Assembly (NCBI GenBank): GCA_032718475.1
Contig: JAUCBJ010007313.1
Location: forward strand, 1 to 40,133
Direction: 5' to 3'
Length of the DNA: 40,133 nt
Source: Nemertoderma westbladi
Taxonomy: Eukaryota > Animalia > Xenacoelomorpha
Of the stretch, positions 1,984-37,900 are shown piece by piece. Under the pieces are notes generated by a model. The model was given only the letters and a program-made list of their open reading frames with translations. It searched no databases and was not told the DNA's origin. Made by a program: the position numbers and the translations under genes. Numbering within the stretch: position 1 is the first letter of the stretch; the number at the start of each line of letters is the position of its first letter.

Positions 1984-4900
1984 CTGTAGGAAATTTAATA
2001 AATAATAATGAAATAAAATATACTAATTGGTGTTTCAATATGTTAAAAATGAAAATTAAAATATATTTTTTTAAAAATGATATTGTAAAAGCTTTTGTGG
2101 AATAACTGATTCGTTTGCCTTGCTAACCAGTTCCCCCCCAGTCGCTAGAATACTCTAAAAAGGGATATATAACTCGAATAGCACAAGCTACCGGCTGATT
2201 GGCTGATTCGCTGTGCGAAGGGATCTGGGCTACGTTTGATTGTCCAACTAGCTTGGGAAAGTATCTCCCAATAGAATTTGAGTTGATTTTGATTTCGACC
2301 TATCACAGGTCTACTGAACTGAATTTTCCTATCTTTATGCTCTTTCTCTGTGTTGGGTGGAAGCCTTTGTAAATAAGGTTATTCTTATCAGTTTTCAGTG
2401 TTGTTGGTCTTTCTTTCCTGAGCCAGGAGAGAACGGCTTGTAAATATTTTGTGCTTTTCTGTTTTAGTCTAACACTAGTAGGCTTAATTATAAAGGGCAT
2501 ATATCCGTTATCACAACAATCAACAACTCAAAACAAACTAATGAACTTAACGCACACTGAATCACTGTGCATACTTTTATATTGTTATACTGCTATTTAC
2601 TGTCAGTTCTTCATAATATGGTTGATGAATTATTATATTTGGAATAACGATAAATAACCCCGAAACCCAATATTCTTGATATACCGAAGGTAAGAGAGAA
2701 AGGTTACATATAACGATTGTGACTTATGTTAAAGTGGTTTGAAGTGAATCTAATGTTATTTGATAGACCCTACATGATTCGGTCCGTGTTCCTTTTATAT
2801 GTGACTAAAATCAGTGAAGATCGGCAGATTAGTGTGCAGTATTGTGCAGCATTGTGTATGAGTGAGACTGATAACGAAGCATTTCCTAAAGAATGCGCCA
2901 TATATGTGAATTATAACTAAGCCATATCGTTGTGAGTAGTTTAAGTCATAACTCTGTTTATATAGATAGAGCGCCACGTCCTAAAGGAACTGTTAATATT
3001 CCCCGAAGGTAAATAATATTGTCAGAGATTATATAATACTGTCAGTCGAATAATACATTAGGCTTATATAGCAATAAGATTAAGCCGTCGAACCCAATCT
3101 CCCGGGTATATCCAGCGGGTGAATGATCGCGCACAGATTGGTTTCGACTAGTGTAGTGAATTAAATACTTGTCATAGACTAAAAGTGATTTATTATCTAG
3201 AAGACATCATAATTTGGCGGGTTAAACTGCCAAAGGTCTAAAAGCGCGAACAATAACGGATATAGCTTTATTGCAGTAAGCAATAAAGTTGAAAGTACCG
3301 GTCAACCGGTAAACCTGAACGGTACTTCAGTAGGTCAGTAGGCCCAACTGTCCTAACCGGTACTTCCCGTATAAGTACAGCAGTATTATTCGATTTGATC
3401 TTTATATGCCGGTAGGTCTTAATAATTAATCGGGGACGCCTGGTTTTTATTGGGATTTTACTTAGGCCTATTTCTGTCAGTTTTATTTATTTGTAGGCCA
3501 GTATTGAACAGAAGGCGTGTAAGCCTGATCAGATTGTACAGACAATTTGTAGGTTGAACTGTTGTCTGATTGCTGTTAGGTCTGAACGGATTGCAGCGTG
3601 TGTAGATCATCTGTCCGATAAAGAACGGTTAGGAAGTAGGGGCAGCGAATGCTGTAAGGTAAACCCCCAACTAAAGAATAAGTCGTACTACTGGGTTAGA
3701 ACGCATACTACCTAATTATTTCGGAGTCTGCATGTCCTGTAGTTTATTTAGGCTTGAGAGTAGTCTGCCATCGTTGAGTCTGTACTTTGTTTGTGTAAGT
3801 CTGTACGGGTAGCGTATAATATTTATTTAGATAATTTGTAGGCTGGATAGTTGTCTGGCTGTTATTAGGTCTGAACGGATTGCAGCGTGTGTAGATCACT
3901 TGTCCGATAAAGAACGGTTAGGAAGTAGGGGCAGCGAATGCTGTAAGGTAAACCCCCTACTAAAGAATAAGTCGTACTACTGGGTTAGAACGCATACTAC
4001 CTAATTATTTCGGAGTCTGCATATACCGTAGTTTGTTTAGGCTTGATAGTAGTCTGTCAGTGTTCGGTCTGCATTTTGTTTGAGTAGTTTGTACGCGTAG
4101 CGTAATATTTATTATTCAGAGTTTATGCGATTATTCGCAACATTCATTCCCCAAGTTTGTTCCTACAGTAATTGTGTTTGTTATACATACCGCTATAGTT
4201 AAATTAACCCCGGTACTACACGGGCTGCTTGGCGTAGGTAAAGACTGGTGATTTTGTGCATCGGTCACTCCAGCAGATGCCGTGGTTCTTTTAGCTGTTC
4301 AAGTATATTTAACTACAGATTATATGTTATACAAGTACTCGTACCTAATTTAGGGTTTAGTGTACAGTGCTTTCCGAAAGTAATTAGTGTAGGCATTACA
4401 TTTGTATTGTAAAGTGGTTGATAGGCACGTTCGATTAGCTCTATTAACTTCTAGGTAGGAACACTCCGTGATACATAACGTAGAACCTATAGCGATACGG
4501 CTATAGGTCGTCAGGTGGTGGTATTTTCCTATCTGGACAACGCAGTGTATTTACTACTACGTATTATTTTCAAATACCGCAGTACCCTGTCCGTTGTAAT
4601 AACCAGATACTAACCCTTTGTTAGGCTGGTTTGTAGACTTCTTGTAAAATTACCCTGAAAATTCGTATTTTGTGTTTTTTGTAAATTTTTGTGTTTATTT
4701 AGAGATTGTAATCTCACCCGAATTGTACGTAATTTGTAGTATTAAGTAACTTAGGTAAATTAGAATTATTTGTTTTAGTGTCCTATAAGTAACACTTCAC
4801 TGAAAGCGCACCGCTTTGTGTAGTGATTACTCCCCAGAAATAATAACATTTATTTCAAACATTGAAAAAACCCATTAAAACGGGTATATATATATTATAA

Positions 4901-7900
4901 ATCAAATCTAACGATTTATAAATAGTAGGCCTACCATACAACCATTAGGTCCCCATATCAGTTGGTCTACTGCTCAAATAGCAGTAATAAAGTAAGTAAA
5001 GTAACCAAGTAACCCTAAAATTCAGAAATTCAATTATTTAAAATAATTGATATACCGGTATTCCCAATAGGCCTATTATCTTTATTTCTATAAATCTAGG
5101 CTGAAATTATACCGGTACTTGTAATTAATTCTATTCCAGAATTATACATACTACAAACTGTAAGCTGTATACCGGTATTCCCGATAGGCCTATTATATAT
5201 TTATATATATTTGTGCTAAAATTATACCGGTATTCTGTGATAAACCTAGTCTGTAATAATACTTATATAGTTATATAAATACTATAAGTATACCAGTGTT
5301 CTAATATATTATATATATATCCTACTACACTGAGTAGCAGTATCGGTAATTAATTACTAGGCTAGCAGCTAATACTGAGTTACTAGACTTGCTCAGACTG
5401 TAATACAGCAGTAGACATTCAACGGTATACATAGACATGTCTGATACTAAGCAGAACCTGTCAGACAGTTTATTAGATGTAACTATCTGCGACTCAGATA
5501 GAGGCGTAGAACCGTCTGGTCGTAAGTTCAGTTCACCTCCCACTGTGAGGAAGGTCATCCCTCCTGTAGTAATAACCGAACCTAGGCTGGTCCAACATCG
5601 TAGGTTTATCATAGGCACTCGAGCTCAGGTCAAGCGGGACCAAGAAGCAGCAGAACAGCAACAACCCGCGAGACAAGAACTTATTTCTCAGCGGCCCAAC
5701 AGTTCCAGTAGTGATGATACTGTAGAGCTGACACCCGAGCGCGGAGCGAAGATGACGGATGCGGTTTATTCGGATCCCCTTCTCATCCTTCCTGCAGCCG
5801 TACTCACCAGGTTATTGATCGCTGTGGAAGAACACCAGATCGATTGGGCGAGAAGCCAGCGTTCAACTAGAGATAGTTATGCTGGATACACAAGAGAAGA
5901 ACTGAAGTCCATAGTCGAGTCGCAATGGAACTTCCCCGGACCCGGACTCCCGTTTGATTTATCCGAAGCTGCCTGGGAAGACATACACCGGATGGGAGTA
6001 GCCAAGGAAACCATCGATCCAGCTGTGTGGAAGAGGTCCGCAGCCGGATACGCACAGGGATTCTTCAGCTCTATGGAGCGAGTAGAAAAACAACTGTTAC
6101 AACAACCTCAAGGACCTCAAGAGCAGGGACAGCTGCTTTATCAAGTAAGAGAAAGAATTCTACGAATCAGGTTAATATTATCGGCCTTTGAGGAGGCTTC
6201 TAAACGAAGACAAGACACGTCGTTGCAAGTTGCCATAAAAACTTGGTTTCAACGGGTGAGTCGCCAGGTGCAAGGAACAGCTCAGTGGAAAGCTCAGCTG
6301 GAGGAGCGCTCAACCCATGGAGAATCAACAGACGCTACTTATTCCCAAGTGGAAAGTGAAGCGACGGCAGAGAAACCGCATAAGAGGGATGCCATTGACA
6401 TCTATCTGTCGGACTATCAACGTTTTTTAGGTAATGACGAGTTGAGGAGAAGGTTAGAGGGACTTAGCCCTAATAGTGAAGGAACCAAGCTTGTGTTGGA
6501 TGCCATCGATGTGGAAATGAGGGCTGCGAATCAGGCTAAATTCGATGAACAACTCCGCCTGACACGAGTCCAAGAAGAGCAAGTAAAGAAAAAACGCATA
6601 GAAGACAGAAAGAAAGCGGCAGTGGTAGCTGCAGAAGCAGAAAGAAAAGCGGCAGCGGCAGAGGCAGCAGCAGAGGAAAAAGCGGCAGCGGCAGCGGTAG
6701 CGGCAGCGGCAGAAGCAAAGGCGGCCGAGGCTGAGAGAAAGGCCGCAGAGGCAGTGGCAGAAGCCGAACGGAGAGCGACTGAAGAAACCACCCAATTAGA
6801 ATTGGAAAACATTCAGGAGAATCAAGACTGCATAAATAAACAGTTAACAGCTAGTAATATGCAGATGATGAATCGATCTACTCCCAAAAGACAGAGATAT
6901 ACATCATCTGAGGAAGGCGATACCACCGATACTGAAGGCAAGGGAAATAGATCTCGTCTAAGTAGACGTAAAAGAACATTCCACCGTCAGAAATTGCCTG
7001 ATTTGCCTCCAGCTGTTAGAAGGCAACTAAATAACACCAACTTAGGTAGTACAGAGCCCACAGACCAAATAATTAAAATAGAAAGACTCCCTACTATAGT
7101 AGATGAGCCTGAAATAATTAGGCCTGTTCTTGAAATCACCCCTTCGGTGATAGACACACCTGTGCTCCCTGAAACTACCTCTAAATTCCCTCTGCATAGC
7201 ACTAAGCTACCTGTGCCCCGTAGAACTGCCCAGGGGACAGTTCAGGTCCTGGACCCCGAGCGAAATATTCATAATTTGTCGCCCGTTGTCCCTCGTCCGC
7301 CCGCTACAACGTTGGCGACTCCCGCTTCGGCGGTCGAATGGGTGGACGAGGGACGGCGGGGGATGGATATCCTGCTCGGGCAGATGCAGGAGACTGTCCA
7401 GCAATTCAAGGGCACAGTAAGGGAAAGTAGGCTAGAGTTGCAAGAAGTGCAGCAAAGTATCGCGCTAGAACGCGATAAATTAGTAAATACTCAAAAGGGT
7501 ATACCGCCACCCTCTGTAACAATGTGTCAACCTGTTAGGTCTGAAGTATCTCATGCGCAAGGTGTGGAGCCTACACGCATATATACTGCTAGTGAGGTAG
7601 AAACTCCTATAGTGAACCCTATTAAGGGTAATTATAGACCTGTTGATAATGACATTCCCTATAGAACTGATCATAATCCGAGAAATGTATATACCGATAA
7701 CTCGATATTAAATAACACGATGGCCCAAGAAAGTTTTACGCGTCAAATGGCTAGAACCGAAGCCCGGCAAGCGGTAAAGGTGGGAGAGATCGTCAAGTTC
7801 AATGGAGATGAGATGAAATGGTTACCTTTTAATGAATATTACAAAGATAACATACAGAACTCTGTACTATCTAATGGAGAAAAACTTAGATACCTCATCG

Positions 7901-10900
7901 AGTGCTTGGAAGGATCTCCCAAGTTAATGGCGTTAAAGTTTATTGGACATCCAGACGGATTAAGACAAGTTTGGGACACACTAAACATCAGGTATGGTAA
8001 TAGGAATAATATCGCTAAGTATTTATATGCAAAATTAGTAGCGCCCAGAAAGTTCATCAGCAGTGGGATAATAGAGTTTTCCGATGAGATTCAAGAGATC
8101 TGTAGACAATTAGATTGGTTAGGTAAGTCTCATGAATACCAAAGTTCTATGGTTATTGGAGCTGTGGCTTCTACTTTACCGAAAGGTGGGGTAGGCACAC
8201 GCTGGGATAAGAAAGTACTATATATGATGGAACAACAACGACGAGACCCTACCATGACTGATCTCATGTCATTCTTGGATGGAGAAGTGAAATTGCAACT
8301 CCTCAAGCAGTCCCGAGAGAAGACACCGGAAAACAAGGTAAGTGAAAAACCCGTCTCTAGGAGAAAGGTAACACCAGTGTGTTATACAGACGACGGCGAA
8401 AGCCAGACTTCTCAAGGAGAAGATAGCGGGAAAGACACTGATAGATCTTATTATGTCAATAAAATGCCTAAAGATCAGGTAAGTAAATTCAAGTCTCGAG
8501 CAAATGACAGGAGAGAACCGATAAGAAAAACTCCTCCCACGTCTCCCAAGAGAATTCAGGTGAGAAAGCCCGAAGAAAAGGCAAGTGTACACAATGTGAC
8601 TCAGAATAAGGTAAGTAACATCAAACCGAAATGTGCGCTGTGTGACGGGACCCACCATTTGAATAGGTGTGATGAATTTCTAAAGAAATCATTAACGGAG
8701 AGACGCGAAGTTATGTGGGATAAGCGGTTATGTTATAATTGCCTCAGACAAGGACACCAACGGCGAACCTGTTTCTCTGACATAAGGTGTGCAAAGTGTG
8801 GTGCGAAACATCATATCTTGTTGCACACTGAATTCGATCGAAATAGTCCGAATCAGGTAAGTGATTCCGAGCTACATGTCCAATTCAGTGATGTGAACGA
8901 CACTGATCAATCTGAGATGGAAGGATTCTATACAGACGAGTTCTCCTACGAAAACGAATCCTGTTACATGATAAATACCGCAGTGTATCGAGCACTCACC
9001 TATGAAAAGGATACAGACAACGACTTCACTCTAACTACTTCAGAACGACAACCATCTTGGAAAGAGCCATCTTCCAATGTAGGGATCCGAGAGTTTCCTG
9101 TGGTGCAAGTAAGGGTTCACGGACCTAAGAGGAGTTATGTAGTGAACGCCCTCCTTGACTCCGGTAGTACAGGAACATTCATCGACAAAGAGCTAGCCGA
9201 AGATATATTTGCTGGACAACCCAAGTTCCAAACTAAGCTCAATATGTCCGGCATTATGCAAGTTTGGAAATCTACAATAACAGCTGATTATTATGTAGGC
9301 GCGTTGTCCACCCCACAAGATGAACTAGGAGAACACAGCATAAGGTCAGTAAAAATGGTGGCTATAAAGAACTTCGCTACTACTCAAGCAGACCTTTATA
9401 ATTGGGACGAGGATGAGAGCATCCAACATCTTAACATACCTCGATTCCAGACTGATTATCCTGGAGTACAAATACTCATCGGCCAAAACGCGCATGAGGC
9501 GCTGGAGACATTAGAGAAACGGCCTGCTCAACCGCAGCCACTACAGACCTATGCGGTAAGAACTAGAGTAGGTTGGTACTTTACTGGCCCTTCCCGTAGA
9601 ACACTCAGAGAAAGACTACCGCCAGACAGCGTATGCCAGGTGAGTGAATGGGAAGATGATACCAGTGAGGGAGACAACTTAACTGAGGGAACTCCATACT
9701 CCTCAGATAATGACGACGTTCACCAGCTTTTTGATGAGGAGAATACCATCGATCTCCTTAAGGAAAACGAGGCTTGGCAGAACCAAGTGAACTTATGTCA
9801 ACTTCTCTATCCATCTGAACGAGAAGCTTATAACGACGAGTTAAATGACGTCATTGAGCGTCATAATGCCAAGACTCGGGATGAACATGCCGTACGATTC
9901 TTTACGCAAGAGGCGGTAGAGCCCAATTCCTACGATAAAGCCTTGTCGGTGGAAGAGGAAAGGGCCAAGCAGATCCAAGAGACAACTACACGTTTCCTCA
10001 AAGATCAAGGTAGGTATGAAGTCGGTCTACCTTTCCGCAAGAAAGAACCGAAGTTCATCAATAACAGACCTTTGGCGGAAAAAAGAATCGCGCAACTCCA
10101 TCGACGCCTTACGGCTAATTCTTCAGCTAAAGCAATGTATCAAACACAGCTGGAAAAATTTATTAGTAAGGGATACGCGGAGAGAGTACCGGAAGAAACA
10201 CCTGTGACTGAAAGAACGTATTACTTAACTCACCATTACGTTCCTAAACCCGGTAAGACACACGAAGTGAGAGTAGTGTTTGATGGCTCCGCTCTTTACA
10301 TGGGTCAATCCCTTAACTCTGAATTGTTACCCGGACCCAACTTGCTTCAATCTTTGTTGGGAATTCTTTTAAGATTGAGACAATATTCGATTGCTTTCGC
10401 CTCCGATATAGAAGGCATGTTCTTACAAGTCAAGGTGTTAGATAAGGATCGAGATAGTCTACGATTTCTGTGGTGGCCCAAAGGAGACCTCAACCAGAAA
10501 CCGGTGGAGTACTGGATGACCATCCAGGCCTTTGGGATAATCTCAAGCCCTTCCAACGCCTGTTCGGTAGTGCGTACCACTGCAGAGGACAACAGAGAGG
10601 CCTTCTCTAAGGAAGTGATCGACAACATCAAGAGAGACATATACATGGACGACAATCTGAAGTCCCTTCCATCAGTTGAGGAAGCCATTGAGGTCGCTAA
10701 AGGAACGGTAGAGTGCTTAAAAAGAGGTGGTTTTCGATTAACAAAATTCACCAGCAACTCCCGTGAGTTTCTGGAGTCGATCCCCGCGGAAGATCGAGGG
10801 GCGAAAGATCTAGATTTGATCAAAGATGATCTGCCAGAAACCAAGACACTCGGCTTGAAATGGGACACAGAGCGAGATATCCTGTTTTTCCAGCTAAAAC

Positions 10901-13900
10901 AGCGAGATAATCCAGTTCGAACAAAACGGATTTGCTTAAGTATACTGAGCACTTATTTCGATCCATTGGGATTTATTAGCCCAGTTATATTGATTGCTTG
11001 TAGCTTGGTACAACAAATGTGGCTTGAAAACCACTCATGGGACGATCCACTTAAGGGAGAATTATTGAAGAAGTGGATGGAATGGGAAGATTCTCTGCCG
11101 GCTATCGAGGATTTTATAATTTCCCGTTCATATTTTGGTCATGTTCTCCCTACGTATTCCTATCAACTCCATGTGTTTGGAGACGCCAGCGATATGGGAA
11201 TAGGTATAGTAGCCTATCTAAGGGTAGAAACTCCGGATGGAATCAAAGTCGCCCTGGTTACTTCTAAGGCATTAATCAACAACAAGTTGAAAGTTCCTCG
11301 AGCGGAGTTAAAAGCGGCTCTATACGCTACAGCCATCGGCCGGAATGTAACAGAACAGATTGACTATCCATTAGAGAAAACTGTCTATTGGACCGACGCT
11401 TTACTCGTGTTAGAGTATATAACCAATGAAGTCTGTCAGTTCAGCGTCTTCGTTACCAACAGGGTAGCCATCATACTTAGTCGCACGACGATGGACCAAT
11501 GGAGACATTGCCCCGGAACGATTAACCCAGCAGACATCGCTTCCAGGGGAGCGACTCCAAAGGAATTGGTAAATACTCCCGAATGGTTAGGAGGACCTGA
11601 CTTTCTCTACAGAGAAGAAGAAGAATGGCCACCCCATCTCACAACAGCAGAGATCAGACAGGCCAAGGGAGCGGAGAAAGTTAAACCCAAAACTCGAGCG
11701 AGTAAATCGAAGTTGTTTAAACCTGCGGTTGATCTATCTGTATTATTTACTTCCGGAGAGGATGCTTTGGATCAGAAACCCACCGCCATGACTAAAGAAG
11801 TCTTGGAAATCCGTGACAAGGATTGGAAATCTGGAATACCAGATATTTCGCAAGGACTCTCACCTCTCTTGCAGAGAGCGATACGTCACTACAGTTCCTG
11901 GAATCGGCTCTGTAAAGCTGTCACCTATCTGAAACGATGTTTTCATCATCGTTACTCCGGGACAAAGACCAATAGTGATGATGCTCCATCAACATCTGCA
12001 CGAGTCCATGTTGTTAAAGACCTTCCCCAATACAAGATATCCGACAGGTTTCTAAAGGAGAAGATCAGTTACCAGGAGCATGATGAAACCAACAAACAGA
12101 TGCTGAGACTCCTACAATGCTATGAGGATTCCGATAAGTATTTCCTGTTATTAAGAAATCCACAGATGCGCTTAAGGGATCGCTTCTCTAGTACCATGAT
12201 AGATGGGTTAATACGTGTTGGAGGTAGACTGACCAACGCCCCATTATCCTTTGACACTAAGTTTCCCATCCTCATTAGAAATCTTGACATACAAATCAAG
12301 ATAATTGTAGATGTTCATAGCAAACTGTACCATGCTGGTAGAGAACGAGTTCTGAGCGAAATTCGAACTCGCTACTATTTTTATAAACCCCGTAGGGCTC
12401 TGAACCAAGTTCTTAGGAACTGCATACCCTGTAGGAAAGCATTCAGTAGGCCTTTAACACAGCGAGAGGCAGAATTACCTAGGGAAAGAGTAAGCTTCTA
12501 TGAACCACCCTTTACTAATACCGGTGTGGATTTATTTGGCCCTATTGAAGTATATCGTGCCCGGACTATAGTCAAGAGATGGTGTGTCATCTTCGTTTGT
12601 ATGACTTGTAGAGCTATCCATCTCGATATGGTAAACGATCTATCCACCAACAGCTTCGTGTTGAGTTTACGACGACAGATTGCTCGCTTCGGAACCAGTA
12701 ACACGATGAGATCGGATAAGGGAACGAACTTCATTGGCGCCAACAACGAAATTCAAGCTTACGTAAAGGACTGGAACAAAAGACAGGTGGACGATCAGCT
12801 AAGGATAACAGCGTCTAGCTGGACCTTCAACGCCGCCGACGCCCCTTGGTGGGGAGGAAGTTGGGAGAGATTGATTAGGAGCGTGAAGACTGCGTTCCAC
12901 TTTATTGTGCCTTGTCGCGCTTATCTCACCGACGAACTATTGCGGACGTTAATGGAGGAAATCGCCGCCTATCTCAACGAAAGACCGCTTATGCCAGTCT
13001 CTTCAAATCCTGATTCCCTGGAAGCGCTAACACCCGCGCACTTTCTACTGAAGAAACCCGTAGCCATGCTCCCACGATCGGAGATCACAGACGGAGACGA
13101 GTACTGCCGTCGAACCTGGCAACTTATGCAGTTGCTATCCCGTCGTTTCGCTGACCATTTCGAGAAACATTACCTGTCCACTCTACAACTTCGAACTAAG
13201 TGGTTTGCGCAGCAAGAAAACGTCAGCTCTGGAGACATGGTGCTTATTGTGGACCCCGATCTCCCACGTAAGCGATGGCAAACAGGTCGTATCATCAAGA
13301 CGCATATCTCGAGCGATGGTTTGGTGCGATCAGTAGAGCTCGTCGTCATGCGGCGGAACTTTAAGAAACCAGGGATAGTCTTTGAGACTCAACAGCTCAA
13401 TCGCCCAGTGGGTCGTTTATGTTTACTGGAAAGAGACAGAGAGCTCTCCGGAAACTATGGAAGGCAAGAAACTCTTCCCACGACCACTTCCCTAATCCAA
13501 CCGACATCTAGGGACTCCCCAACTTAATATCGTTCGGAGTGGGCGTGTGACCCTATTATTTTATATTATTTTTATTATTTTTATATTTATGTATGTATTA
13601 CTATGTAATTTTATTATAATCGTTTTATTTAATTTAGTAGAATATTATTTAGCGATTATTTTGTAGAATAGTGCAATATATTCGTGTTTATTACGTACGT
13701 AATTACTTATATTATATTTAGTGCGACGGCGAGAAATAATAATTTTTTCTCTTTCCTTACTGTCCGTATTATATTATAAATACGTAACTACAGTAAGATG
13801 AAATGTACGTACTTATTAAAGTACAATAAAGCCACTACTATATTTAAGTATTATTGGTAGGCAGAGTATTAGGAATGCAAAGTTCAGATCCTCGTGTCTC

Positions 13901-16900
13901 GGCTAAACCAAGCTCTGGGTAGACCTTGGAAACGACTTGCCTCTTCACACTGACATTGCTTCGTGCGATATTGCTCTCATACCGTATATTAAATAATACA
14001 TATAGTAGCGTGATGTCCCTTTAACAGTAGCGTATAACGCAAAATAAATCTGTTAAACCCTTTGACCATCTGTAATTCTAGTCGATTAAGATATCGCGGC
14101 ACCCACCGATATACTTGAAAGACAAATTCTAGAATCAGTGGTTAACGTCCCCAGACAAGTTCTGGAATAAATCGGTGCCCATCTCAAATATTAATTATTT
14201 AATATTTGCAAATCTAATAAATCAAAATCTGTAAATTCAGATCCTTCAACAATTCTAGTCAATTAAGATATCGTAGCATTTACCGATATTCTTAAAAAAG
14301 ACAATTGTCATAGAATTAAGGATCTTGTGTCCCTAGACATGTTCTAGAATCAAAATATGTCCATTTAATTATCAAATAATAAAATTTCAGGGAATAAATT
14401 TAAATTCATGCCTTTTAATGAATTTAATAAATTGCCATTTTTACGCAATTTATAACATTCCCAAAATTCCATTAATTAATAGATCAAGGGAGCGGAGATT
14501 TATCTTATTATGCATATGAGTGTGCGAAAGTCACCCAAACATAGTCAATAGCCGATAAAATTCATAAAGTCATGTATAGAACAGAACATTGACTATTAAA
14601 GAATACTATTAAATAACATCCCAGATCTGTATGCATTGGAACTACCCTAATTCTACCGCTAGCTTTGCATAATGTCACCATAGCAACAACCACGATAGAA
14701 TTAGAATTGAGTTAAAAGAACAATAGAAAGCTTGTCCCATTGAATAGCATAGGGAATAAATAGCGCACTACTAGTATCCAAGGATACATAATAATACAGT
14801 GACATTCTGGAAGGCATTGACTAACGGACAAATGGCCCGAATGTGCGTAGTTGTGACCAGTTGTGTGGTATTTGTGAGTTTATAGGTGAATGTTACTGCT
14901 AAAGTGTGTTTACAGTAGCTAGTCGCAATCGTAAAAGTAACCTAACTCTCCAAGGAATACCTGAAGTACATCTAAGCCTTTGGGACGGACAGTTGAGTGA
15001 CTTGTGCCGGTTATCGTTGTCGTTGTACGGCTACGTCGTTGGCGAAAGTATAGCGACAGCGGTACATCGGCGCTGAGAATCTCATACTGTCCGGGGGCAA
15101 GGGAGAAATAGGCAGCGACGCCCGCTCGCCTAACAATATATAAACTCATTATAATATTGGTGAACTCGTATAGCAGATATGACTGAATTAATAGAAGATG
15201 ATCTTGGTATCAGGGAGAGATATACTCTACCTTTACAAGCGTTTGTCGATAGCTTGATACGCGGCGACGCTGATCCAACTACTACGGAGGACGATGGTCG
15301 TTATATCGAACCGCCAATGTCCCAGGAGCAACTTACGCGTGAATTGGACTATAGAAAATTCACTGCTCGCTATACACATCGTAATGGTACGTATATGGAC
15401 TTCTTGACCACTGGTCATCCTATTGATTTACACGACACCGACGATGTCGATACCGAAAGGGAAATGGTTTTATTTAAATATCATACCCAGCGGAGTCGAA
15501 ACGATAAATCGAGAATAGAACACGAGAACTCTATTCGAAATCAACTCGAAGGATAGAACGTGGAAGAAGGTTGATGCGAACAAATAAAGGAGAACCACTG
15601 GAGAAAAGACATGGGTTAATGTCCAGGGTCCATAATGTGAATAGTTTTCCCCGGGGCACGGGTGCTCGCGGGCGGTCTCCTTCGGGAGGCTGTAACTTTC
15701 CCTTCCTTCATCGTTTTCCTGTAATTATTGTGATCAGTGTCACAATTAAAAGGCAGGAATGAATGATGATGTGACGGAAAACACATCCATTGTGGTATCT
15801 TATGGATACTATCGTATATCCTCCCTCCTCGCTACTCCTCTTACCCTCTTATATGTTGTTACTAAAGATACGACATATTTCATCCCACCTTCTCTTCCAA
15901 CGTGCTCGGAGCTTCGGGAAACGAGCACTAAACCTCCCATCCCTTACTGTTCATCTGGATGCTAATATTAGTGTCCGCACCTCCTGTCCATGTCATATTC
16001 TGTTGATATTTATGATATCAACTTCCACCCTCTCGTTCTTGATTAGATAATCAGCCACTTCCTAATTTCCTCAAGTCCACAACCGTGAAACAAGGACTGA
16101 AAGGACACGAGGATAGTTTGTGAACAACTGGTACCATTATGTGTCATAAATCTGGTTGTTCACCTCCCTTAATGATTGGGGATATAAATCTTATGTAGAA
16201 CAACTGAGGCAAACATATCCTTGAACTGGTTGTTCCCTCATCACACTGGGGATAAATTCAGTTGGAGATAGTCCTCGAATGTAACAATCCTCCTACTGAG
16301 ATCGTATTTCGGAATATTTCTGAATACGACATAGGTCTTCCCCTGCTCTTTACCACTACCATCACTGTCACTGTCGGAAAACATATTGGGCATACAACAG
16401 GAATATGGAGAACATTCCATACCCTTTCGTTGATACTCAGCTGATTGCTCCTTGGGCCGAAGGCCGAGGTTTCTTTCGCACTATGTATGCCAATACACCC
16501 AGCGACATTACTAAAGTACAACGGACGTCCATCGGACATCTTGCCTTTCAAGAATATGGATGGAACTTCAAAGTTGGAAATCCTATCAATTACCAGCAGG
16601 TATATGGAGATCATTACTCCCGTTTATATTTTGACGGACCATTAACTGCGCCTGGTGCAGTATATAGCTTTATGAGTGTTCCACTTCGCCCTTCCTTAGC
16701 TATATACACGATCTTTGAAAACGCAGCACTTGCCGGTTGGCTAGCCGATGTGTGCAGTCGTACCATACGCGCTCACCCGTTAATACTTGGAACTAAACTC
16801 GCCAAGTTAGACGAACATAATAAGTTCATACGTTTCGAATGTTTCCGGTGCTTTCTGACTCCGTTCCGTAACGTCAATAGTCAGTTCAAGGACCGCGCGC

Positions 16901-19900
16901 TGACCAAACTCAGTCTGAGAGACTCGGCTGCGGAGAAACTGAGTAGCGCTGGATTTGCCGTGTTTCAAGACGTTTGTATACAGAACTCACATTCATCTGT
17001 TATACAAAGACCCCGAATACCTACAGGTTATTCTGTCGTGGAAATACAGACAGTGGATCCACTTACTGAGACAGACGCACCCACTTCGTCTATACAACTG
17101 GAGGATGAACCAGTGTGCTTGGAATCAGAAGCGATTCAGCCTACAACTTCCTGGAGCAGTGACAATGATTATGTCATAGAGTGGTATCAAGGTCCACAGC
17201 GTCTCACAGCGTACGATTATCGACACGCCAACTACGTTTCTCGAAAACGTTGTCGATTATGCGCATCGAGAGACCACTTCATTCCTCTAGACTCGAGCGT
17301 ACCTTGTTCCTATTTCCTCGAACAACCGATGATGGAAATATATTGTGCTTATTGCCGGCTTAATAACTCTCATATATTTGCCGTCTGCCCACAATTTATG
17401 ACTCAATGTCACTACTGTCAATTTAAAGGACATGAAAGTTACAATTGTCCCTTTAATCGCGATTTAGAGAGCGTAGACGAGATGATCACCCTGCGATACA
17501 TCCGAGCTTGGGAAGCGAATGCCGATTTACATTGCGAATCCCGACATCGCTATTACCCTGGACGAGCTTACGAGGGAGTTTACGCGTTCCATCCTTATCT
17601 ATTCGCGTCGATTGAACAGAAAACACGCGTACCAAGTTACGAGTTAATGAAGCGTGTTGGTGAGTGTATTTCCACCAAGTTTGTCAGGAAATACCTTAGA
17701 AACGTTAACCCTAATGATATAACCACATATCACCTGATCAATTTTATCCGTCAGGAAGCCTGAGTATGGCGACATCTTTGTGAACTCGCATCCTGAACTA
17801 CAGGAAATATCTCGGCGACCATATGAATATCGAACCCGAGAACGCGAGCTGGAGAGAACCATTAAACCGAGAAAGTTCCTCACCACTCACGGTCCACCCA
17901 CCGTTAGTGTCCAGACGACCCGTCAAGGACCCGTAGGAGCTGCTGTCTTGAGACGCGCTCTAAAGGCCGTTAGACCTCACTCCACTGAGGTTGATATTAA
18001 TCAACCAGGTACTTCGACCGGCGGGTATACCGATCGTAACCCTGCACCTTCTGATGCAATTATATTGCACCCTTCGCCTAGGAGCTACAGCCCTCCTCGT
18101 AAAGTGGCTCGCCCCAAAGAGAAAATGACTCTTGCTAGCTTTAAAAAACTGCATAAACGCCGTCCGCGCAAGAAAGACTAACTGTTTAGAGTATTTATGT
18201 ATATTAGAAATTGTGATTTTGTATATTTTATAGACTTAAATCCCATTTTCTGGGAGCGGTGTAAAAGCTTTTGTGGAATAACTGATTCGTTTGCCTTGCT
18301 AACCAGTTCCCCCCCCAGTCGCTAGAATACTCTAAAAAGGGATATATAACTCAAATAGCACAAGCTACCGGCTGATTGGCTGATTCGCTGTGCGAAGGGA
18401 TCTGGGCTACGTTTGATTGTCCAACTAGCTTGGGAAAGTATCTCCCAATAGAATTTGAGTTGATTTTGATTTCGACCTATCACAGGTCTACTGAACTGAA
18501 TTTTCCTATCGTTATGCTCTTTCTCTGTGTTGGGTGGAAGCCTTTGTAAATAAGGTTATTCTTATCAGTTTTCAGTGTTGTTGGTCTTTCTTTCCTGAGC
18601 CAGGAGAGAACGGCTTGTAAATATTTTGTGCTTTTCTGTTTTAGTCTAACACTAGTAGGCTTAATTATAAAGGGCATATATCCGTTATCACAACAATCAA
18701 CAACTCAAAACAAACTAATGAACTTAACGCACACTGAATCACTGTGCATACTTTTATATTGTTATACTGCTATTTACTGTCAGTTCTTCATAATATGGTT
18801 GATGAATTATTATATTTGGAATAACGATAAATAACCCCGAAACCCAATATTCTTGATATACCGAAGGTAAGAGAGAAAGGTTACATATAACGATTGTGAC
18901 TTATGTTAAAGTGGTTTGAAGTGAATCTAATGTTATTTGATAGACCCTACATGATTCGGTCCGTGTTCCTTTTATATGTGACTAAAATCAGTGAAGATCG
19001 GCAGATCAGTGTGCAGTATTGTGCAGCATTGTGTATGAGTGAGACTGATAACGAAGCATTTCCTAAAGAATGCGCCATATATGTGAATTATAACTAAGCC
19101 ATATCGTTGTGAGTAGTTTAAGTCATAACTCTGTTTATATAGATAGAGCGCCACGTCCTAAAGGAACTGTTAATATTCCCCGAAGGTAAATAATATTGTC
19201 AGAGATTATATAATACTGTCAGTCGAATAATACATTAGGCTTACATAGCAATAAGATTAAGCCGTCGAACCCAATCTCCCGGGTATATCCAGCGGGTGAA
19301 TGATCGCGCACAGATTGGTTTCGACTAGTGTAGTGAATTAAATACTTGTCATAGACTAAAAGTGATTTATTATCTAGAAGACATCATAATTTGGCGGGTT
19401 AAACTGCCAAAGGTCTAAAAGCGCGAACAGATATTGTTAGTAATAAATCATCTACGTTGGTAGAACAAGGATGATAAAGTGCTATATTGCTTATAAAGCT
19501 ATAGATAGGCCTATGATAAAGTGATAAAAGGACAATAAAGCGATTCGGAGAGCGATTCGATAACATATTGGTTCAATGTCAACCCTGTAAGTAATTCCCT
19601 ATACTGACTGCTTACAGACATTTGGCCTTGTCACTCCCCCTTTTTTTATAAAAAGGTAACAACTTTAAAGATTAACAAAATAAATTCAATTCAATTAATA
19701 TTGCTTGAAGGGATTCCTATTGGTTTGAGGGAATTTTTAAATTAAATAATTTAAGCAATTTAATTTAATTTCGCCAATAATTATTTTACAATTGATTAAG
19801 GCGGCAGTGTGTGTGCCGCCCATGGAGTTCAAAAGTGAAAGATTTAAAAAGTGCGAAAATACTTAAAGGCGGCAGTGTGTCGCCTTTTAGGGTAGGATAA

Positions 19901-22900
19901 GTAATAATATGGTTTATCATCTTTATATAAAAATCTCTGGTACGAGAAGAAAATAATCCTTGGTCCGATCAAATAATTTATTTTTCTTGGTCCATTGGGA
20001 GGAAAAATTTATGTAATTTATCTTTGTTACGCAAAGGGTTTTAAAGGCGAGATTTATTTTCAATAAAATAAATTATGATGACAACTTTAATGACTGAATT
20101 AATGACTCACTGATACAAATCCTTAGAGAATATGGGACAGTTGTCGTTCTGATCTGCTACATTTATAGTAACTGTTGTTGTTCCTGTAAGTATCTTTGGT
20201 GTTGTCTGATCTCTTTCAACCCCCTTATCCTTCGCTATTACCTTAAATGTTATCTGTAAAGGAAGACACAAATATGGTGTTGGGTATAGGGCAGGCCGAA
20301 AAATAGGTAGGCTGAAATATAGAGATGTAGGCCGAAATATAGAGATATAGGTAGGCCGAAAAATAGAGATATAGGTAGGCCGAAATATAGAGATATAGGC
20401 GGAAAAATAGCGATATAGGTAGGCCGAAAAATTGAGATATAGGTAGAAATATAGAGATATAGGCTTAAACATAAAGATATTCGTACGCCGAAAGATATAG
20501 GTAGGCCGAAATATAGATATATAGGCCGAAAAATAGAGATATAGGTAGGCCGAAAAATAGAGATACAGGCCGAAATATAGAGATATAGGTAGGCCGAAAA
20601 ATGGAGATATAGGTAGAAATATAGAGATATAGGCTTAAACATAAAGATATTCGTACGCCGAAAGATATAGGTAGGCCGAAATATAGAGATATAGGCCGAA
20701 AAATAGAGATATAGGTAGGCCGAAAAATAGAGATACAGGCCGAAATATAGAGATATAGGTAGGCCGAAAAATGGAGATATAGGTAGAAATATAGAGATAT
20801 AGGTAGGCCGAAAAATAGAGATACAGGCCGAAATATAGAGATATAGGTAGGCCGAAAAATGGAGATATAGGCCGAAAAATAGAGATATAGGTAGGCCGAA
20901 ATATAGAGATATAGGCGGAAAAATAGCGATATAGGTAGGCCGAAAAATTGAGATATAGGTAGAAATATAGAGATATAGGCTTAAACATAAAGATATTCGT
21001 ACGCCGAAAGATATAGGTAGCTCGAAACATAGAGATATAGGCCGAAAAATAGAGATGTAGGCGGAAAAATAGAGATATAGGTAGGCCGAAAAATAGATAT
21101 ATGTAGGCCGAAACATAAAGATATAAGTAGACCTAAACATACAGATTTAGGTGGAAAAATAGAGATATAGGTAGGCCGAAACATAGAGATATAGGTAGGC
21201 CGAAACATAGAGATACAGGCCGAAATATAGAGATATAGGTAGGCCGAAAAATGGAGATATAGGTAGAAATATAGAGATATAGGCTTAAACATAAAGATAT
21301 TCGTACGCCGAAAGATATAGGTAGGCCGAAATATAGAGATATAGGTAGGCCGAAACATAGAGATATAGGTAGGCCGAAACATAGAGATATAGGTAGGCCG
21401 AAACATAGAGATACAGGCCGAAACATAGAGATATAGGTAGGCCGAAAAATAGAGATACAGGCCGAAATATAGAGATATAGGTAGGCCGAAAAATGGAGAT
21501 ATAGGTAGAAATATAGAGATATAGGCTTAAACATAAAGATATTCGTACGCCGAAAGATATAGGTAGGTCGAAACATAGAGATATAGGCCGAAAAATAGAG
21601 ATATAGGCGGAAAAATAGAGATATATGTAGGCCGAAAAATAGATATATGTAGGCCGAAACATAAAGATATAAGTAGGCCTAAACATACAGATTTAGGTGG
21701 AAAAATAGAGATATAGGTAGGCCGAAACATAGAGATATAGGTAGGCCGAAACATAGAGATATAGGCGGAAAAATAGAGATATAGGTAGGCCGAAAAATTG
21801 AGATACAGGCCGAAATATAGAGATATAGGTAGGCCGAAAAATGGAGATATAGGTAGAAATATAGAGATATAGGCTTAAACATAAAGATATTCGTACGCCG
21901 AAAGATATAGGTAGGCCGAAACAGATATATAGGCCAAAAAATAGAGATATGGGTAGGCCGAAAAATAGAGATATAGGTAGGCCGAAACATAGAGATATAG
22001 GTGGAAAAATAGAGATATAGGTAGGCCGAAAAATAGATATAAGTAGGCCTAAACATACAGATATAGGTATGCTGAAAGATGAATAGGTAGGCCGAAACAT
22101 ACGTAGGCCGAAGATATAGGCCGAAACTAGATATATAGATGGCCGAAACATAGAGATATTGTTGACCGAAAACAGAAAAGGCTCTAATTCCAAATTAGTT
22201 TTAGTTTAAAATAAAAAAATGTGAAAATTAACCTTTTTTTCTTCTTCGTAATCCAACAACCCTGGTCCAGCTCTTAGATAACCATCAGCTGTCATATAGA
22301 ACACCTCATTGGCTCGCACACCGTCCAATGAGGTGGAGTCAATACTGTACTCAACCTAAAAATATTCATAATAAATTTGTTTAAATTATTACTATATATT
22401 AAGAAACTCCCTTGTTTATTGGAATCCGATAAACTCAGACATAATATATAGTTGAATTAGAAATGAACTCAGATAAGATGTATGTCAGTGTGTTGGATAA
22501 TTGGATATTTAATTGGTCTATGGTGTTTTGTAGTTTGTGAGGCTTAAAGACTCTAATGTATTTTAGATTAACTCGATAAGACAGGATGTATGTAATGTAG
22601 CACTTTATACGACATAAAATGGTATTATTTTATACAACACTTAAAGATACTTTATGAAACGGGTGAATGATTTAGCCAAGATAAAAATATGTTAATAACG
22701 AAATTGACATTGGTCATGTATTTGCTTTTACTTATGCATACTTTTACTGAATAGGTGAGTAACCTGTGAGTTGACGTGTCCAGGTTTATCAGCATCCGTA
22801 GCAACGAGAGGCAGAACCAAAGACGAGACAGGTCGGTTCTCCTGCACAGACTTTGTGAAGGTAGTCAGTCCAAAATCGGGTGTGTTGTCGTTGATATCCT

Positions 22901-25900
22901 TGAGAATAACTTGTACTGTAACATCGGTTGTTTGCTGGTTAGGTGGAGTACCTTTGTCCTTGGCCTGTATCTTAAGGTTGTAGACTTCAATCTAGGGAGC
23001 CAATGAAATCAGGAAATTAGTAAAATTAGGCATAAAAATACTACCCATTTTTTTCAAAGCACCAAAATGTAACTGGTAAACTTAACCGTAAGTGCTACTC
23101 TATGCCTAGGCTAAGGGCGTACGGTACACACAGGTATGGGGACAGGGATATAATTTCGAATCTGGAATCTTTTAAGCAATTTTTATGTGAATTTTTGGTT
23201 TCGGGTTGACCAACTAAATCAACAAAAATAAAACTGACTCAAATTTACAAAAATATTATGTCAGCCTGCGTTTCCAAATTGGACAGATTTGAAATCAACA
23301 TTACCGAACCGGTATGTGCAGTCCTACGGTAAAGATGACTAATTTATTTATATGCTAAAAAAAAGTAAATTTTCTTCGGCCGCTAGGCCTGGGATTACGC
23401 ACAAAGTCTGACGACTTATTTCCAGTGCGGTCCCCCCACAACTTTACTCACCAGAGGAAACTCAGTACTCATTTAGCTACTATTTAAGAATGCAAGGCAG
23501 AGATGCGCCCTGGTTGGGACCTTTAAAGCATTCGTGCCGAAACGAAAACTGCCCTGGCCCATGTGAGGCTCGAACCCACGACCTATAGGAGATATGAATT
23601 CAATGCAACCACTACACCAAGGTGGAACCTACATCGATGTACAAGGCTGGGATAACTCCCTCTTGAAATGACTCCCTAATCATCTCAGCCTAGGCTGAAA
23701 ACACTCCCCTTTGGCTGAGATGACTCCCCTTTGGCTGAGATGACTCCCCTTAGGCTGAGAACACTCCCCTTAGGCTGAGATGACTCCCCTTAGGCTGAGA
23801 TGACTCCCCTTAGGCTGAGAACACTCCCCTTAGGCTGAGATGACTCCCCTTAGGCTGAGATGACTCCCCTTAGGCTGAGATGACTCCCCTTAGGCTGAGA
23901 TGACTCCCCTTAGGCTGAGATGACTACCCTTAGGCTGAGATGACTCCCCTTAGGCTGAGATGACTCCCCTTAGGCTGAGATGACTCCCCTTAGGCTGAGA
24001 TGACTCCCCTTAGGCTGAGATGACTCCCCTTAGGCTGAGATGACTCCCCTTAGGCTGAGATGACTCCCCCTTAGGCTGAGATGACTCCCCCTTAGGCTGA
24101 GATGACTCCCCCTTAGGCTGAGATGACTCCCCTTAGGCTGAGATGACTCCCCTAATTGAGTTATAGTTCATATCCATACCTGTGGTATTTTCATATATTG
24201 CAAAAAACTGTAACCTATGTTATTAGTTATTGTTTACTAGTTATTGTTTTGGTTAGAAAAGCCCGCCACTTTAACCTGTTCCTTTCCGTTAATTAAGAAA
24301 TCTAGGGAAAAAACTGGGCAGTGTTTTAGACTGAAAAGACTGGATGTTTGGTTAGGAGTTATCTCAGCCTGTTACACCGGATCGCTTGTTTATTGTTATT
24401 ATTACGGTTTTTATTCCCCGGACTTACCTTCTCCCTATCCAACTCGTCGGCCACTGTCGCGAACTTGACTCTGAATTCTCCGGTGGTCTTATCGATGGCG
24501 AACTGATCGAATCGCGGGTCGCCGCCCACAATAAAGTATTCAACGGCCCCGAAAGCGTTAGAAGTTCCATCGTCGTCTAAATCCGTCGCTTTTATGTTTG
24601 TCGTTATTGAGAATACTGAAAGCGGAGTTGATAATAAATTATTTTTTGACCCTGAACTTACCGGACAATCTCATATAGTAAAGTGATATCCTAATATATA
24701 TTACCCACTGCCCATGTTACAATAGTTAATCAATGTTGATAATACTATGGTAATAGGGGCTACCTACACTGTACCCGTACACTACTACTATAAGAGGATT
24801 CACCCAGGGACTGCAGAAACTTATGTATTAAAAGCAAAATAAAACAATTTTCAATTTATAAACACGAAGTCTAGAACCCGAGCATTTTGCAGATGAGACT
24901 TCGTAGGAATTCACAAGGTTGGTTTGTAGGGAGTCACTGGACTGGTTCGAAACCAGCTCACAGCAATAATTTGTCAATAAATTCAAACCCATAAGGTCCC
25001 ATTAAAAATAACCTGGCTAAGCCATTCAAAATCAATAGCATAATATTATTATATCACTGAAGTATATCTCTAGAATATTATTTCAGAAAATGTAGCAAAT
25101 TATAGCGTTATGACCTTGTTTATTATATTTGGCTCGCTTCGCTCCTGTAATAAAGAAAACCCACTCGTTTATGTACTAAATTTCACAAAAGTAAGTAAAA
25201 TTTATATAAATTTTAATTGTTATTATTGTTATCCCCAACCCTGAAGAAGATGAACTTAAAAGTTATAAATAAAGTAAAACGTACAACTTGGATCGTCTTC
25301 GAATACGTGGGTGTATATATACGGGGTGTTCTCGAAGATAGGGGCATTGTCGTTGCAATCTGTGAGATCGACGGTGAGATGCCAATCGGTGCTGGTAGTA
25401 ACCGGAAGGACACTCTGGGTGCACTTCGGGGTCTGGCCACGGTCGCACGCCTAAATGAGTCACAGAGATAATGCGAGCAATTATTGGTTGAGCGGAATAA
25501 ACTATAGATTATGTGTGACAATGTTAACAGGACTGTTTGTACTGCAGAAATAAGTACAGCAATGAGTCTGGCTTTGTTGTTAGGAGTGTCAACTTACCCT
25601 AGCAACCAATGTGATAGCTTTGTTGTTTGGAGGGTCTCTGTCTAGATTCGCCTTGACCACGCTCAACTCTCCGGTGTTGGGTTCCAGGAAGAAGTAGTTT
25701 CCAGGGTTGCTAAGCAACTTATACTCTACGTCACTATTCCAACCGGCGTAGGGCGGTGTCAGGGTCAGATCCCTTGGTCGATCTTTATCAGTGGCAATAA
25801 ACTGTAAGGCAATAAATATATGGTAGTTTTATAAGTTGGGCATATGAAGAATAAAAAAAATCTAACCAAAAAACTAAACCAAGTGTATGACATTATTGTA

Positions 25901-34900: not shown

Positions 34901-37900
34901 GGACACACGCAAAGTTAATATGGGCACACTTACTGATACAGTTACTATGGACACACGCAAAGTTAATATGGGCACACTTACTGATACAGTTACTATGGAC
35001 ACACGCAAAGTTAATATGGGCACACTTACTGATACAGTTACTATGGACACACGCAAAGTTAATATGGGCACACATACTGATACAGTTTCTAATGGACACT
35101 CGTATAATTACTATGGATACACTTACTAAATTGATACAGTTACTATGGACACACGCAAAGTTAATATGGGCACACTTACTGATACAGTTACTATGGACAC
35201 ACCCAAAGTTAATATGGGCACACTTACTGATACAGTTACTATGGACACACGCAAAGTTAATATGGGCACACTTACTGATACAGTTACTATGGACACACGC
35301 AAAGTTAATATGGGCACACTTACTGATACAGTTACTATGGACACACGCAAAGTTAATATGGGCACACTTACTGATACAGTTACTATGGACACACGCAAAG
35401 TTAATATGGGCACACTTACTGATACAGTTACTATGGACACACGCAAAGTTAATATGGGCACACTTACTGATACAGTTACTATGGACACACGCATAGTTAA
35501 TATGGGCACACTTACTGGTACAGTTACTATGGACACACGCAAAGTTAATATGGGCACACTTACTGATACAGTTACTATGGACACACGCAAAGTTAATATG
35601 GGCACACTTACTGATACAGTTACTATGGACACACGCAAAGTTAATATGGGCACACTTACTGGTACAGTTACTATGGACACACGCAAAGTTAATATGGGCA
35701 CACTTACTGATACAGTTACTATGGACACACGCAAAGTTAATATGGGCACACTTACTGATACAGTTACTATGGACACACGCAAAGTTAATATGGGCACACT
35801 TACTGATACAGTTACTATGGACACACGCATAGTTAATATGGGCACACTTACTGATACAGATACTATGGACACACGCAAAGTTAATATGGGCACACTTACT
35901 GATACAGTTACTATGGACACACGCATAGTTAATATGGGCACACTTACTGGTACAGTTACTATGGACACACGCAAAGTTAATATGGGCACACTTACTGATA
36001 CAGTTACTATGGACACACGCATAGTTAATATGGGCACACTTACTGGTACAGTTACTATGGACACACGCAAAGTTAATATGGGCACACTTACTGATACAGT
36101 TACTATGGACACACGCATAGTTAATATGGGCACACTTACTGATACAGTTACTATGGACACACGCATAGTTAATATGGGCACACTTACTGGTACAGTTACT
36201 ATGGACACACGCAAAGTTAATATGGGCACACTTACTGATACAGTTACTATGGACACACGCATAGTTAATATGGGCACACTTACTGGTACAGTTACTATGG
36301 ACACACGCATAGTTAATATGGGCACACTTACTGATACAGTTACTATGGACACACGCAAAGTTAATATGGGCACACTTACTGATACAGTTACTATGGACAC
36401 ACGCAAAGTTAATATGGGCACACTTACTGATACAGTTACTATGGACACACGCAAAGTTAATATGGGCACACTTACTGATACAGTTACTATGGACACACGC
36501 ATAGTTAATATGGGCACACTTACTGGTACAGTTACTATGGACACACGCAAAGTTAATATGGGCACACTTACTGATACAGTTACTATGGACACACGCATAG
36601 TTAATATGGGCACACTTACTGGTACAGTTACTATGGACACACGCATAGTTAATATGGGCACACTTACTGATACAGATACTATGGACACACGCAAAGTTAA
36701 TATGGCAGACTTACTGCTGATACAGTAAATATAAACTTACAGATAGGGTTCCATGAGGAGTCACGAAGTCACCATCACTGGCTTTAACACTCATAATATC
36801 CGCATCCAGAGCAACATCCTCATCTACGGTGGCGACGGTGTAAGTAACAGTAGTATCGAACACTGGAGGGAATTCATCCTGTATAAATAATAATCAAATA
36901 ATCACACTTTACTTTCACTATCAGAACCCATATTTAATTTAACCGATCAGAAACATGAGTAAGTTTTATGTGCTTTTCTAATCTTATTCACTTGTAATTA
37001 TTTTATTCTGTCCACCATCATGGGGGGGGGGGGGGGGGATTTCGATATATAATTGACCCGTAGAGGATTAAAACCTGGGTGGAGTTAGGTTGTATCAGTT
37101 AATGCTCTGAGTGGCCAGACATTGCTCTCCATGCAGGGATCGAACTTTGGATCAACGGTTTGGATGCCCATAATATCGGCACACAGCCTTAACCCTTAAA
37201 CTGGTGAAAACTCATGAGTTTTGGGAGGGCCAATTCCACTTGGTGGGAATTTTTTTAATAGATGTGACTGACTTGGCGAGAACTTATATTTGAGTTCTCG
37301 CAAGTCGACTCCCTCTTGGTGGATCTTTTTTAAGAAGAATTAGTTGACTTGGTGAAAACTCATATATGAGTTTATGAGCCAACGTCTGGACTTGGTAGAG
37401 ATTATATTTTCAAAAATAATTTATGTAAATTTAAGAATTGAATGCGGAATTATGTTAGTTTGGAATTCATAAAAAGAATGGCTTGAAAATTATTCGTAAC
37501 ATTCTATGAATGTAAAAATGAAAATTATTCGTAACATTCTATGAATGTAAAAATGAAAATTATTCGTAACATTCTATGAATTTAAAAATGAAAATTATTC
37601 GTAACATTCTATGAATGTAAAAATGAAAATTATTCTTAACATTCTATGAATGTAAAAATGAAAATTATTCGTAACATTCTATGAATTTAAAAATGAAAAT
37701 TATTCGTAACATTCTATGAATGTAAAAATGAAAATTATTCGTAACATTCTATGAATGTAAAAATGAAAATTATTCGTAACATTCTATGAATGTAAAAATG
37801 AAAATTATTCGTAACATTCTATGAATGTAAAAATGAAAATTATTCGTAACATTCTATGAATGTAAAAATGAAAATTATTCGTAACATTCTATGAATTTAA

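Follow-up and report, generated by a model that had tools for sequence, protein, structure and literature searches.

A BEL/Pao element of Nemertoderma westbladi with a two-gene, non-Env module located between its pol and 3' LTR

The window analysed here is a stretch of 40,133 nucleotides from the xenacoelomorph Nemertoderma westbladi (contig JAUCBJ010007313.1 of assembly GCA_032718475.1, positions 1 to 40,133 of the forward strand). It contains a retrotransposon bounded by long terminal repeats (LTRs) in which a module of 4.7 kb follows pol and precedes the 3' LTR (13528 to 18259). We find that this module is the element's own and that it holds two genes, open reading frame (ORF) A and a longer gene made up of ORFs B and C, and resembles neither an Env nor a Gag nor a nested element. 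Features are on the + strand unless otherwise stated.

The element

Self-comparison delimits a 5' LTR of 1169 bp with TG...CA ends (2084 to 3252) and a 3' LTR of 1170 bp (18260 to 19429), giving a full element length of 17,346 bp, and a target-site duplication of 5 bp flanks it (2079 to 2083, right copy at 19430 to 19434). The LTR pair is 99.57% identical over 1170 columns, with 4 mismatches and 1 gap. Because the LTRs are so alike and the 5-bp target duplication is present, the insertion is recent, and the family is one of high copy number, with 140,370 contigs matched to the element in the largest sequencing run (X1). Between the LTRs lie a non-coding leader of 2.2 kb with several stable folds and an internal tandem duplication of 289 bp (leader 3253 to 5436, duplication 3540 to 4113), a single gag-pol ORF of 2696 amino acids (5437 to 13527), the module, and a G-rich, polypurine-tract-like stretch that resembles those of relatives (18248 to 18259). 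The 5' LTR has no AATAAA, and a single ATTAAA at 3160 is its candidate poly(A) signal.

A Pfam scan of gag-pol identified DUF1759, aspartic protease, Pao peptidase A17, integrase zinc-binding and DUF5641 domains. The Pao-type domains PF05380, PF03564 and PF18701 are present, in the order protease, reverse transcriptase, RNase H, integrase, and PF05380 is found in all 120 Pol relatives listed, which are 31-43% identical to the Pol of the element. Judged by its domains and best matches, the element belongs to BEL/Pao. Its Gag includes a triple Cys-His box, the first nucleocapsid knuckle of which lies at about residue 1065; for 86 relatives the median position is 577. The Gag region at 5437 to 8630 accordingly has about 490 extra residues ahead of the nucleocapsid compared with that median, including an Ala/Glu/Lys-rich repeat, and the N-terminal part of Gag has no match in 80 pol-related loci. 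A previous reading of the sequence alone had called the element an oversized BEL/Pao. This holds against the profile of the family by the international virus taxonomy committee (ICTV), which gives a length of 4.2-10 kb and tRNA priming (PMC8742986), but less so against a de novo survey, the accessible part of which reports a median LTR-to-LTR length of 7.4 kb and maxima up to 22.8 kb (PMC3118150).

A module of two genes behind pol

When the region from 2084 to 18259 is divided into 30 bins, all 30 are covered by contigs in each of four runs from four studies, so that the module is present in other copies. These data are contigs and mostly DNA; run X5 is guessed to be RNA, and run X7 gave one piece of 206 bases. 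None of the contigs listed spans the whole stretch, and it is from the overlap between contigs that we infer the linkage of module and pol in other copies. Of the 296 insertions and deletions, the 12 listed leave gag-pol and ORFs A to C untouched.

About 46% of the module is coding. The sequence-only reading had proposed three accessory ORFs, and A and B stand at the sizes it gave, but C proved to be a part of B, leaving two genes. ORF A encodes an acidic protein of 125 amino acids (15179 to 15556), with candidate splice acceptors just upstream (exon starts 15174 and 15177, phase 1). All eight differences listed within it are silent (p 3e-5); in gag-pol, which served as a control, 21 of 32 are silent, where the expected fraction is 0.28. 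Each difference was judged alone in these counts, and the rows used were in each set the 40 with the best support, out of 3603 and of 495. Since all eight listed differences are silent, ORF A is under purifying selection. No relatives of it were found among longer proteins, and the PDB sequences gave matches with E of at least 0.7 only. We note that a phase-0 donor joined to the acceptor ahead of A would hit, after one residue, a stop that overlaps the start codon of A (15177 to 15182), a possible route to Gag without Pol followed by a restart into A.

ORF B spans 452 amino acids in the window copy (16405 to 17763) and consists of an orphan N-terminal half, an acidic linker, three zinc knuckles (17251 to 17307, 17344 to 17388 and 17407 to 17448) and an end predicted to be helical. 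The knuckles start at residues 283, 314 and 335, and their spacings (CX2CX4HX9C, CX2CX5HX4C and CX2CX4HX4C) are exactly those first read from the sequence. The open frame of B, at 479 codons, is longer than in any of 300 shuffles of the region (longest 221), and two canonical knuckles arose in none of 100,000 residue shuffles; the knuckles are thus no product of chance. ORF C comprises 147 codons from stop to stop and ends in a basic tract (17738 to 18181); its first start codon falls only within its last 16 residues. The window copy is frameshifted at about 17757. In all six contigs that span this point (four from X2, one from X4 and one from X5; X7 does not cover it) B and C are in one frame, and for this reason the family gene is B+C, a protein of about 590 amino acids (about 450 plus 139) with three knuckles and a basic tail that has 14 Lys/Arg in its last 35 residues. 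A separate spliced exon for ORF C had been considered and was dropped on the evidence of the same six contigs. Copies that have diverged by up to 20% still have the frame of about 590 codons open, contigs less than 90% alike lying across B.

ORF B is an orphan in the searches made, apart from one knuckle protein. No homologue of ORF B was found among the near-length proteins of a set of 5.8 billion, and a set of 1.84 billion representatives gave one weak match, restricted to the knuckle part, to a protein with similar paired knuckles (P0001, E 6e-4). ORF B was unmatched in metagenome and viral contigs, its best value in Atlas was 0.77 for the whole protein with nothing for residues 1-200, the PDB sequences gave E of at least 0.5, and in Pfam there was only a weak match to zf-CCHC_3 (E 0.18). 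For ORF C the Pfam scan gave one sub-threshold match and local searches gave none. Single-sequence fold predictions had mean pLDDT (predicted local distance difference test) scores of 31 and 35, which makes them unusable, and no fold comparison rests on them. A loose resemblance of the first two fingers to those of Nanos had been suggested from the sequence; we do not find it, since Pfam returned no Nanos family match and the spacing in B differs from the two-finger pattern of Nanos.

The module is not Env-like, as first proposed, in that A, B and C have no signal peptide or membrane segment by a hydropathy scan (highest hydropathy over 19 residues 0.46, 1.19 and 0.22, respectively) and the module proteins match no fusogen (F, gB, Gn-Gc) in sequence searches of Pfam and the PDB sequences. 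Nor does it resemble the remnant of a nested element: within 13528 to 18259 we found no terminal repeats, no Pfam domain and no transposon protein. A tblastn search with 121 BEL/Pao polyproteins, those of 120 relatives and the element's own, left the module unmatched; B does not match the Gag-Pol of the element, its best E among the 120 related polyproteins is 0.17, and it is therefore not a copy of Gag. A, B and C are likewise unmatched in the 80 pol-related loci, and in 11 LTR-bounded relatives the distance from pol to the LTR is only 106-432 bases (L016 was left out, as its repeat overlaps its own gag).

A and B are separated by a non-coding spacer (15557 to 16404) in which the listed differences have no codon periodicity (7/4/7 of 18). 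A shorter variant also exists: in one deep contig of X4, position 15537 is followed by unknown letters and then by 17153, so that 15538 to 17152 is skipped and ORF A and the knuckle half of B are retained without the spacer and the N-terminal half. The summed contig depth dips at 15530 to 16380, and B has less of it than A; since depth does not allow the parts of one gene to be ranked, we did not use it as evidence. Directly behind the pol stop a purine tract is followed by TG (13536 to 13548), and further on there is an A/T-rich stretch with TATAAA (13775) and AATAAA (13825); together this region (13536 to 13900) may be what is left of an earlier 3' LTR, or else may serve as an internal promoter. 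Rfam gave two sub-threshold microRNA matches, which we take as chance.

RNA-processing signals, primer position and surroundings

The gag part of the element contains six consensus 5' splice donors in a cluster (8120 to 8862, with GT at 8123, 8338, 8479, 8560, 8611 and 8857) and two further donors (6256 and 9640). In all, gag-pol has 8 sites of the loose consensus and 5 exact AGGTAAGT sites, where synonymous-codon shuffles average 1.0 and 0.24, and these counts were reached in none of 2000 shuffles of each of two types (synonymous-codon and codon). The five exact AGGTAAGT sites lie within 740 bases of Gag, and none is found elsewhere on the + strand of the window. By comparison, 35 related gag-pol ORFs (69,758 amino acids) have 9 loose donor sites altogether and at most 2 per ORF. 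Taken with the short pol-to-LTR gap of the 11 relatives, this indicates that donors and module occur together in the element and are both lacking in its relatives. The donors of the cluster are encoded in Lys/Gln-Val-Ser/Arg and Gly-Lys-Ser codons. Of the candidate acceptors near the start of B the best and most pyrimidine-rich is at 16440/16441, in phase 0; seven of the eight donors are also in phase 0, while the single phase-1 donor fits the acceptors before A.

Eight sense AATAAA hexamers follow pol (13825 to 14760), within a non-coding stretch of 1.65 kb that has an internal repeat of about 100 bp, and a ninth lies just behind ORF A (15583). From 2084 to 13824 there are 4 sense and 22 antisense hexamers; from 13825 to 15588 there are 9 and 1. 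The post-pol cluster amounts to 8 hexamers in 935 bases where 2.5 are expected, a density reached in 8 of 1000 shuffles.

The position at which a primer should bind, directly after the 5' LTR (3253 to 3264), is not of the tRNA type: an 18-nucleotide site of the tRNA-Arg/Gly type is absent, the first TGG being 188 bases further on, and no tRNA gene was found within the window. Instead, 12 bases inside the 5' LTR (2500 to 2511) are a perfect complement of the first 12 bases after it and are a candidate self-primer. A complement of 12/12 bases between LTR and primer position was obtained in 12 of 20,000 simulations and in none of 500 local controls. In folds predicted for RNAs that would start at 2482, 2494 or 2500 and end at 3300 the primer helix has a probability of 0.82-0.94; this falls to 0.00-0.19 if the RNA extends to 3400 and to 0.003 if it starts at 2470. 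A hairpin of 10-12 bp follows the primer position, at about 3263 to 3291. Tf1/sushi elements, in the available part of the description, also have a primer position that pairs with 11-12 LTR bases, lack a tRNA site and have an adjacent hairpin (PMC7175516). Reverse transcription may thus be primed by the element RNA's own LTR sequence in the manner of Tf1, a prediction to which we give slightly less than an even chance.

A TGG-type site directly after the LTR is absent also in all six relatives with both LTRs, three of which have uncertain ends, and because of this the tRNA-type primer appears, from these sequences, not to be a universal trait of BEL/Pao. Two relatives without the TGG site have a complement between LTR and post-LTR sequence, L030 (566 to 911, 11 bases) and L003 (682 to 1077, 8 bases); four of the six relatives with both LTRs have no unusual LTR complement. 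Among 30 related loci whose LTR ends are not known, a scan for self-complementary primer sites returned three hairpins of doubtful status and four sites that look like those for tRNAs. L031, L032 and L040 have primer sites that we take to be tRNA-like.

At the two ends of the window lie the end of a related LTR (1 to 36) and the start of a more distant one, 75-83% alike, with its first 85 or so bases doubled (39811 to 40133), from which it follows that relatives of the element cluster here. On the - strand, at 20110 to 20260, there is an exon with canonical splice sites that is cadherin-like by eye and has no Pfam match; the element would sit antisense in or beside such a gene. Large tandem arrays occupy 37 to 1830 (unit about 67 bases), 20290 to 22150 (20/24), 23620 to 24150 (20), 31880 to 33160 (about 34), 34180 to 36750 (48) and 37380 to 38010 (35). 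Two ORF pieces that flank the 34-base array (31727 to 33742) look by eye like one decayed non-LTR element and have no Pfam match.

A predicted regulator of genomic RNA and its rivals

The genomic RNA is 16 kb long, and with eight donors and nine poly(A) hexamers it must stay whole; it would therefore need help. We propose either that splicing joins the gag donors with the phase-0 acceptor at 16441, yielding a Gag-B+C protein, or that it links the leader with the A and B start codons, the use of Gag exons being the likelier; the AATAAA hexamers would end shorter gag-pol and ORF A messages. A genomic RNA that retains all donors and hexamers would then depend on a dedicated factor. The knuckles of B+C could bind this RNA and its basic tail could take the protein to the nucleus, where B+C would spare full-length RNA from being spliced or polyadenylated early and allow its exit to the cytoplasm. 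By analogy with CERV or Rev, B+C would thus be a nuclear RNA-binding protein made from spliced RNA that governs the fate of genomic RNA, the same logic being reached through an unrelated protein. This is the explanation we favour, tentatively, and we would not put it as high as an equal chance. The analogy with complex retroviruses drawn in the sequence-only reading gains independent support from the donor and poly(A) clusters, but not in its version with three separate genes, B and C being one.

A number of observations weigh against this proposal. Stop codons exclude phase 2 from the donors, so that the phase shared by seven of the eight lacks significance (about 0.07) and the agreement of donor and acceptor phases is suggestive only. 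None of the 15 joints listed of 138, and none of the 15 listed of 16, has GT..AG ends, in contigs that are mostly DNA. AATAAA is 1.8-fold more frequent than in shuffles throughout the window (102 versus 57), which weakens the statistic for the cluster. Selection on B and C is not significant, with 4 of 7 listed differences silent in B (p 0.10; one row at the frameshift left out) and 2 of 6 in C (p 0.58). Abundant X4 contigs have single-base insertions or deletions inside A (15410, 15416 and 15455) and within B (17451), and a frameshift is present in the window copy despite LTRs that are 99.6% alike. Finally, a role as particle chaperone or as chromatin factor would suit the knuckles equally well.

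The first of these, a second nucleocapsid-like chaperone, would be spliced onto Gag, enter the particle, and help to package the 16-kb RNA, anneal the self-primer and carry out strand transfer. Nucleocapsids usually have CCHC knuckles in tandem, a fusion made from the donors behind Gag residues 967-1140 would be in frame and retain the capsid region, and a chaperone would be of use to the predicted primer helix, which is marginal and has other folds as competitors. Against this, Gag already carries a triple Cys-His box, the knuckles of B are unrelated to those of BEL/Pao Gags, and ORF A and the poly(A) cluster are left unexplained; we consider a chaperone unlikely. Equally unlikely, in our view, is that A and B+C are anti-silencing or transcription factors that act on element DNA or host small-RNA silencing and are expressed from an internal promoter behind pol instead of through splicing from gag. 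The very high copy number, as in X1, would fit an escape from silencing, both ORFs have their own ATG, there is the basic tail, and TATA-like hexamers lie upstream of A and B (13775, 15137 and 16183); such hexamers are, however, common in DNA this rich in A/T, the donor cluster would go unexplained, and the searches made gave no likeness to a known factor.

More doubtful still is the idea of B+C as cargo that was captured from a host gene or some other element and does little or nothing, so that only ORF A matters. The differences in B and C that are not significantly silent, the frameshifts in the window copy and the X4 contigs, and the X4 contig that skips 15538 to 17152 would all agree with this, and the purine tract and TG behind pol may mark an older element end. 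The frame nevertheless stays open over about 590 codons in diverged copies, no source gene was found among the 1.84 billion representatives, and in the shorter variant the knuckle half is retained. The position would point to a diverged gene for an envelope or for cell-to-cell transfer, since the additional 3' genes known from BEL/Pao are Env-like (PMC8742986 and, in the part consulted, PMC13524379); this reading is largely refuted and very improbable, as A, B and C have no hydrophobic segment or match to a fusogen, and knuckles and a basic tail are intracellular features.

Returning to B+C as a regulator of genomic RNA, its closest likeness is to CERV of Cer1, a Gypsy/Ty3 element of C. elegans. 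According to the portions of the report available, CERV is a non-Env ORF located after pol and before the 3' LTR that shares exons with gag, acts in the nucleus on Cer1 genomic RNA, and resembles B+C in its position, its lack of homologues outside the lineage, a Cys-rich motif and a basic localisation signal (PMC10309623). The two differ in superfamily and in that CERV, as described there, has a C4-type loop where B has three CCHC-type knuckles. No sequence likeness was found, without direct comparison; the present element also has a second gene, A, and its splicing and export are predicted. Non-Env ORFs at this position are known in other superfamilies, and one of them, CERV, is solved. The export factors Rev, Rex and Rec are made from a spliced accessory message, have a basic RNA-binding or localisation tract and serve genomes with many splice signals; B+C is far larger than these and has zinc knuckles. 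In a scan for a response element, 26 of 107 windows fold at z of -2 or below and none stands out.

Like other BEL/Pao elements (Belpaoviridae, Semotivirus), this one has TG...CA LTRs, a 5-bp duplication, one gag-pol ORF and a triple Cys-His box; it differs in its 17.3 kb, the lack of a tRNA-Arg/Gly primer site, its non-Env 3' genes and a Gag about 490 residues longer. Some BEL-like Cer elements of C. elegans, in work by Bowen and McDonald (1999), Ganko (2001) and Frame (2001), reportedly carry an extra 3' ORF or exon that was likened to retroviral accessory genes; they may be closer prior art, and may lower the novelty of the module. The available parts of four accounts describe the extras of BEL/Pao as Env-like only and report no self-priming (PMC554778, PMC8220671, PMC13524379, PMC2774666), and a non-Env knuckle gene or self-priming in BEL/Pao was not found in a literature search outside which most subscription papers fell.

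In its broadest form our proposal is that a BEL/Pao lineage independently became 'complex', with Gag spliced to an orphan triple-knuckle regulator of splicing, polyadenylation and export and with Tf1-like self-priming that needs no host tRNA, a mode of priming that other marine BEL/Pao elements may share; as a whole we regard it as rather unlikely. The donor and poly(A) clusters, the signals that a regulator would have to overcome, accompany the candidate regulator in one element and are lacking in 35 relatives. If the proposal is true, Rev-like control would have arisen anew, by way of a new protein, in one more branch of the elements that use reverse transcription. Self-priming, if true, would place these elements beyond the reach of control by tRNA fragments. 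Self-priming in BEL/Pao would also overturn the ICTV statement of tRNA priming (PMC8742986). The family is abundant and has been recently active in its host, and it thus likely shapes the genome.

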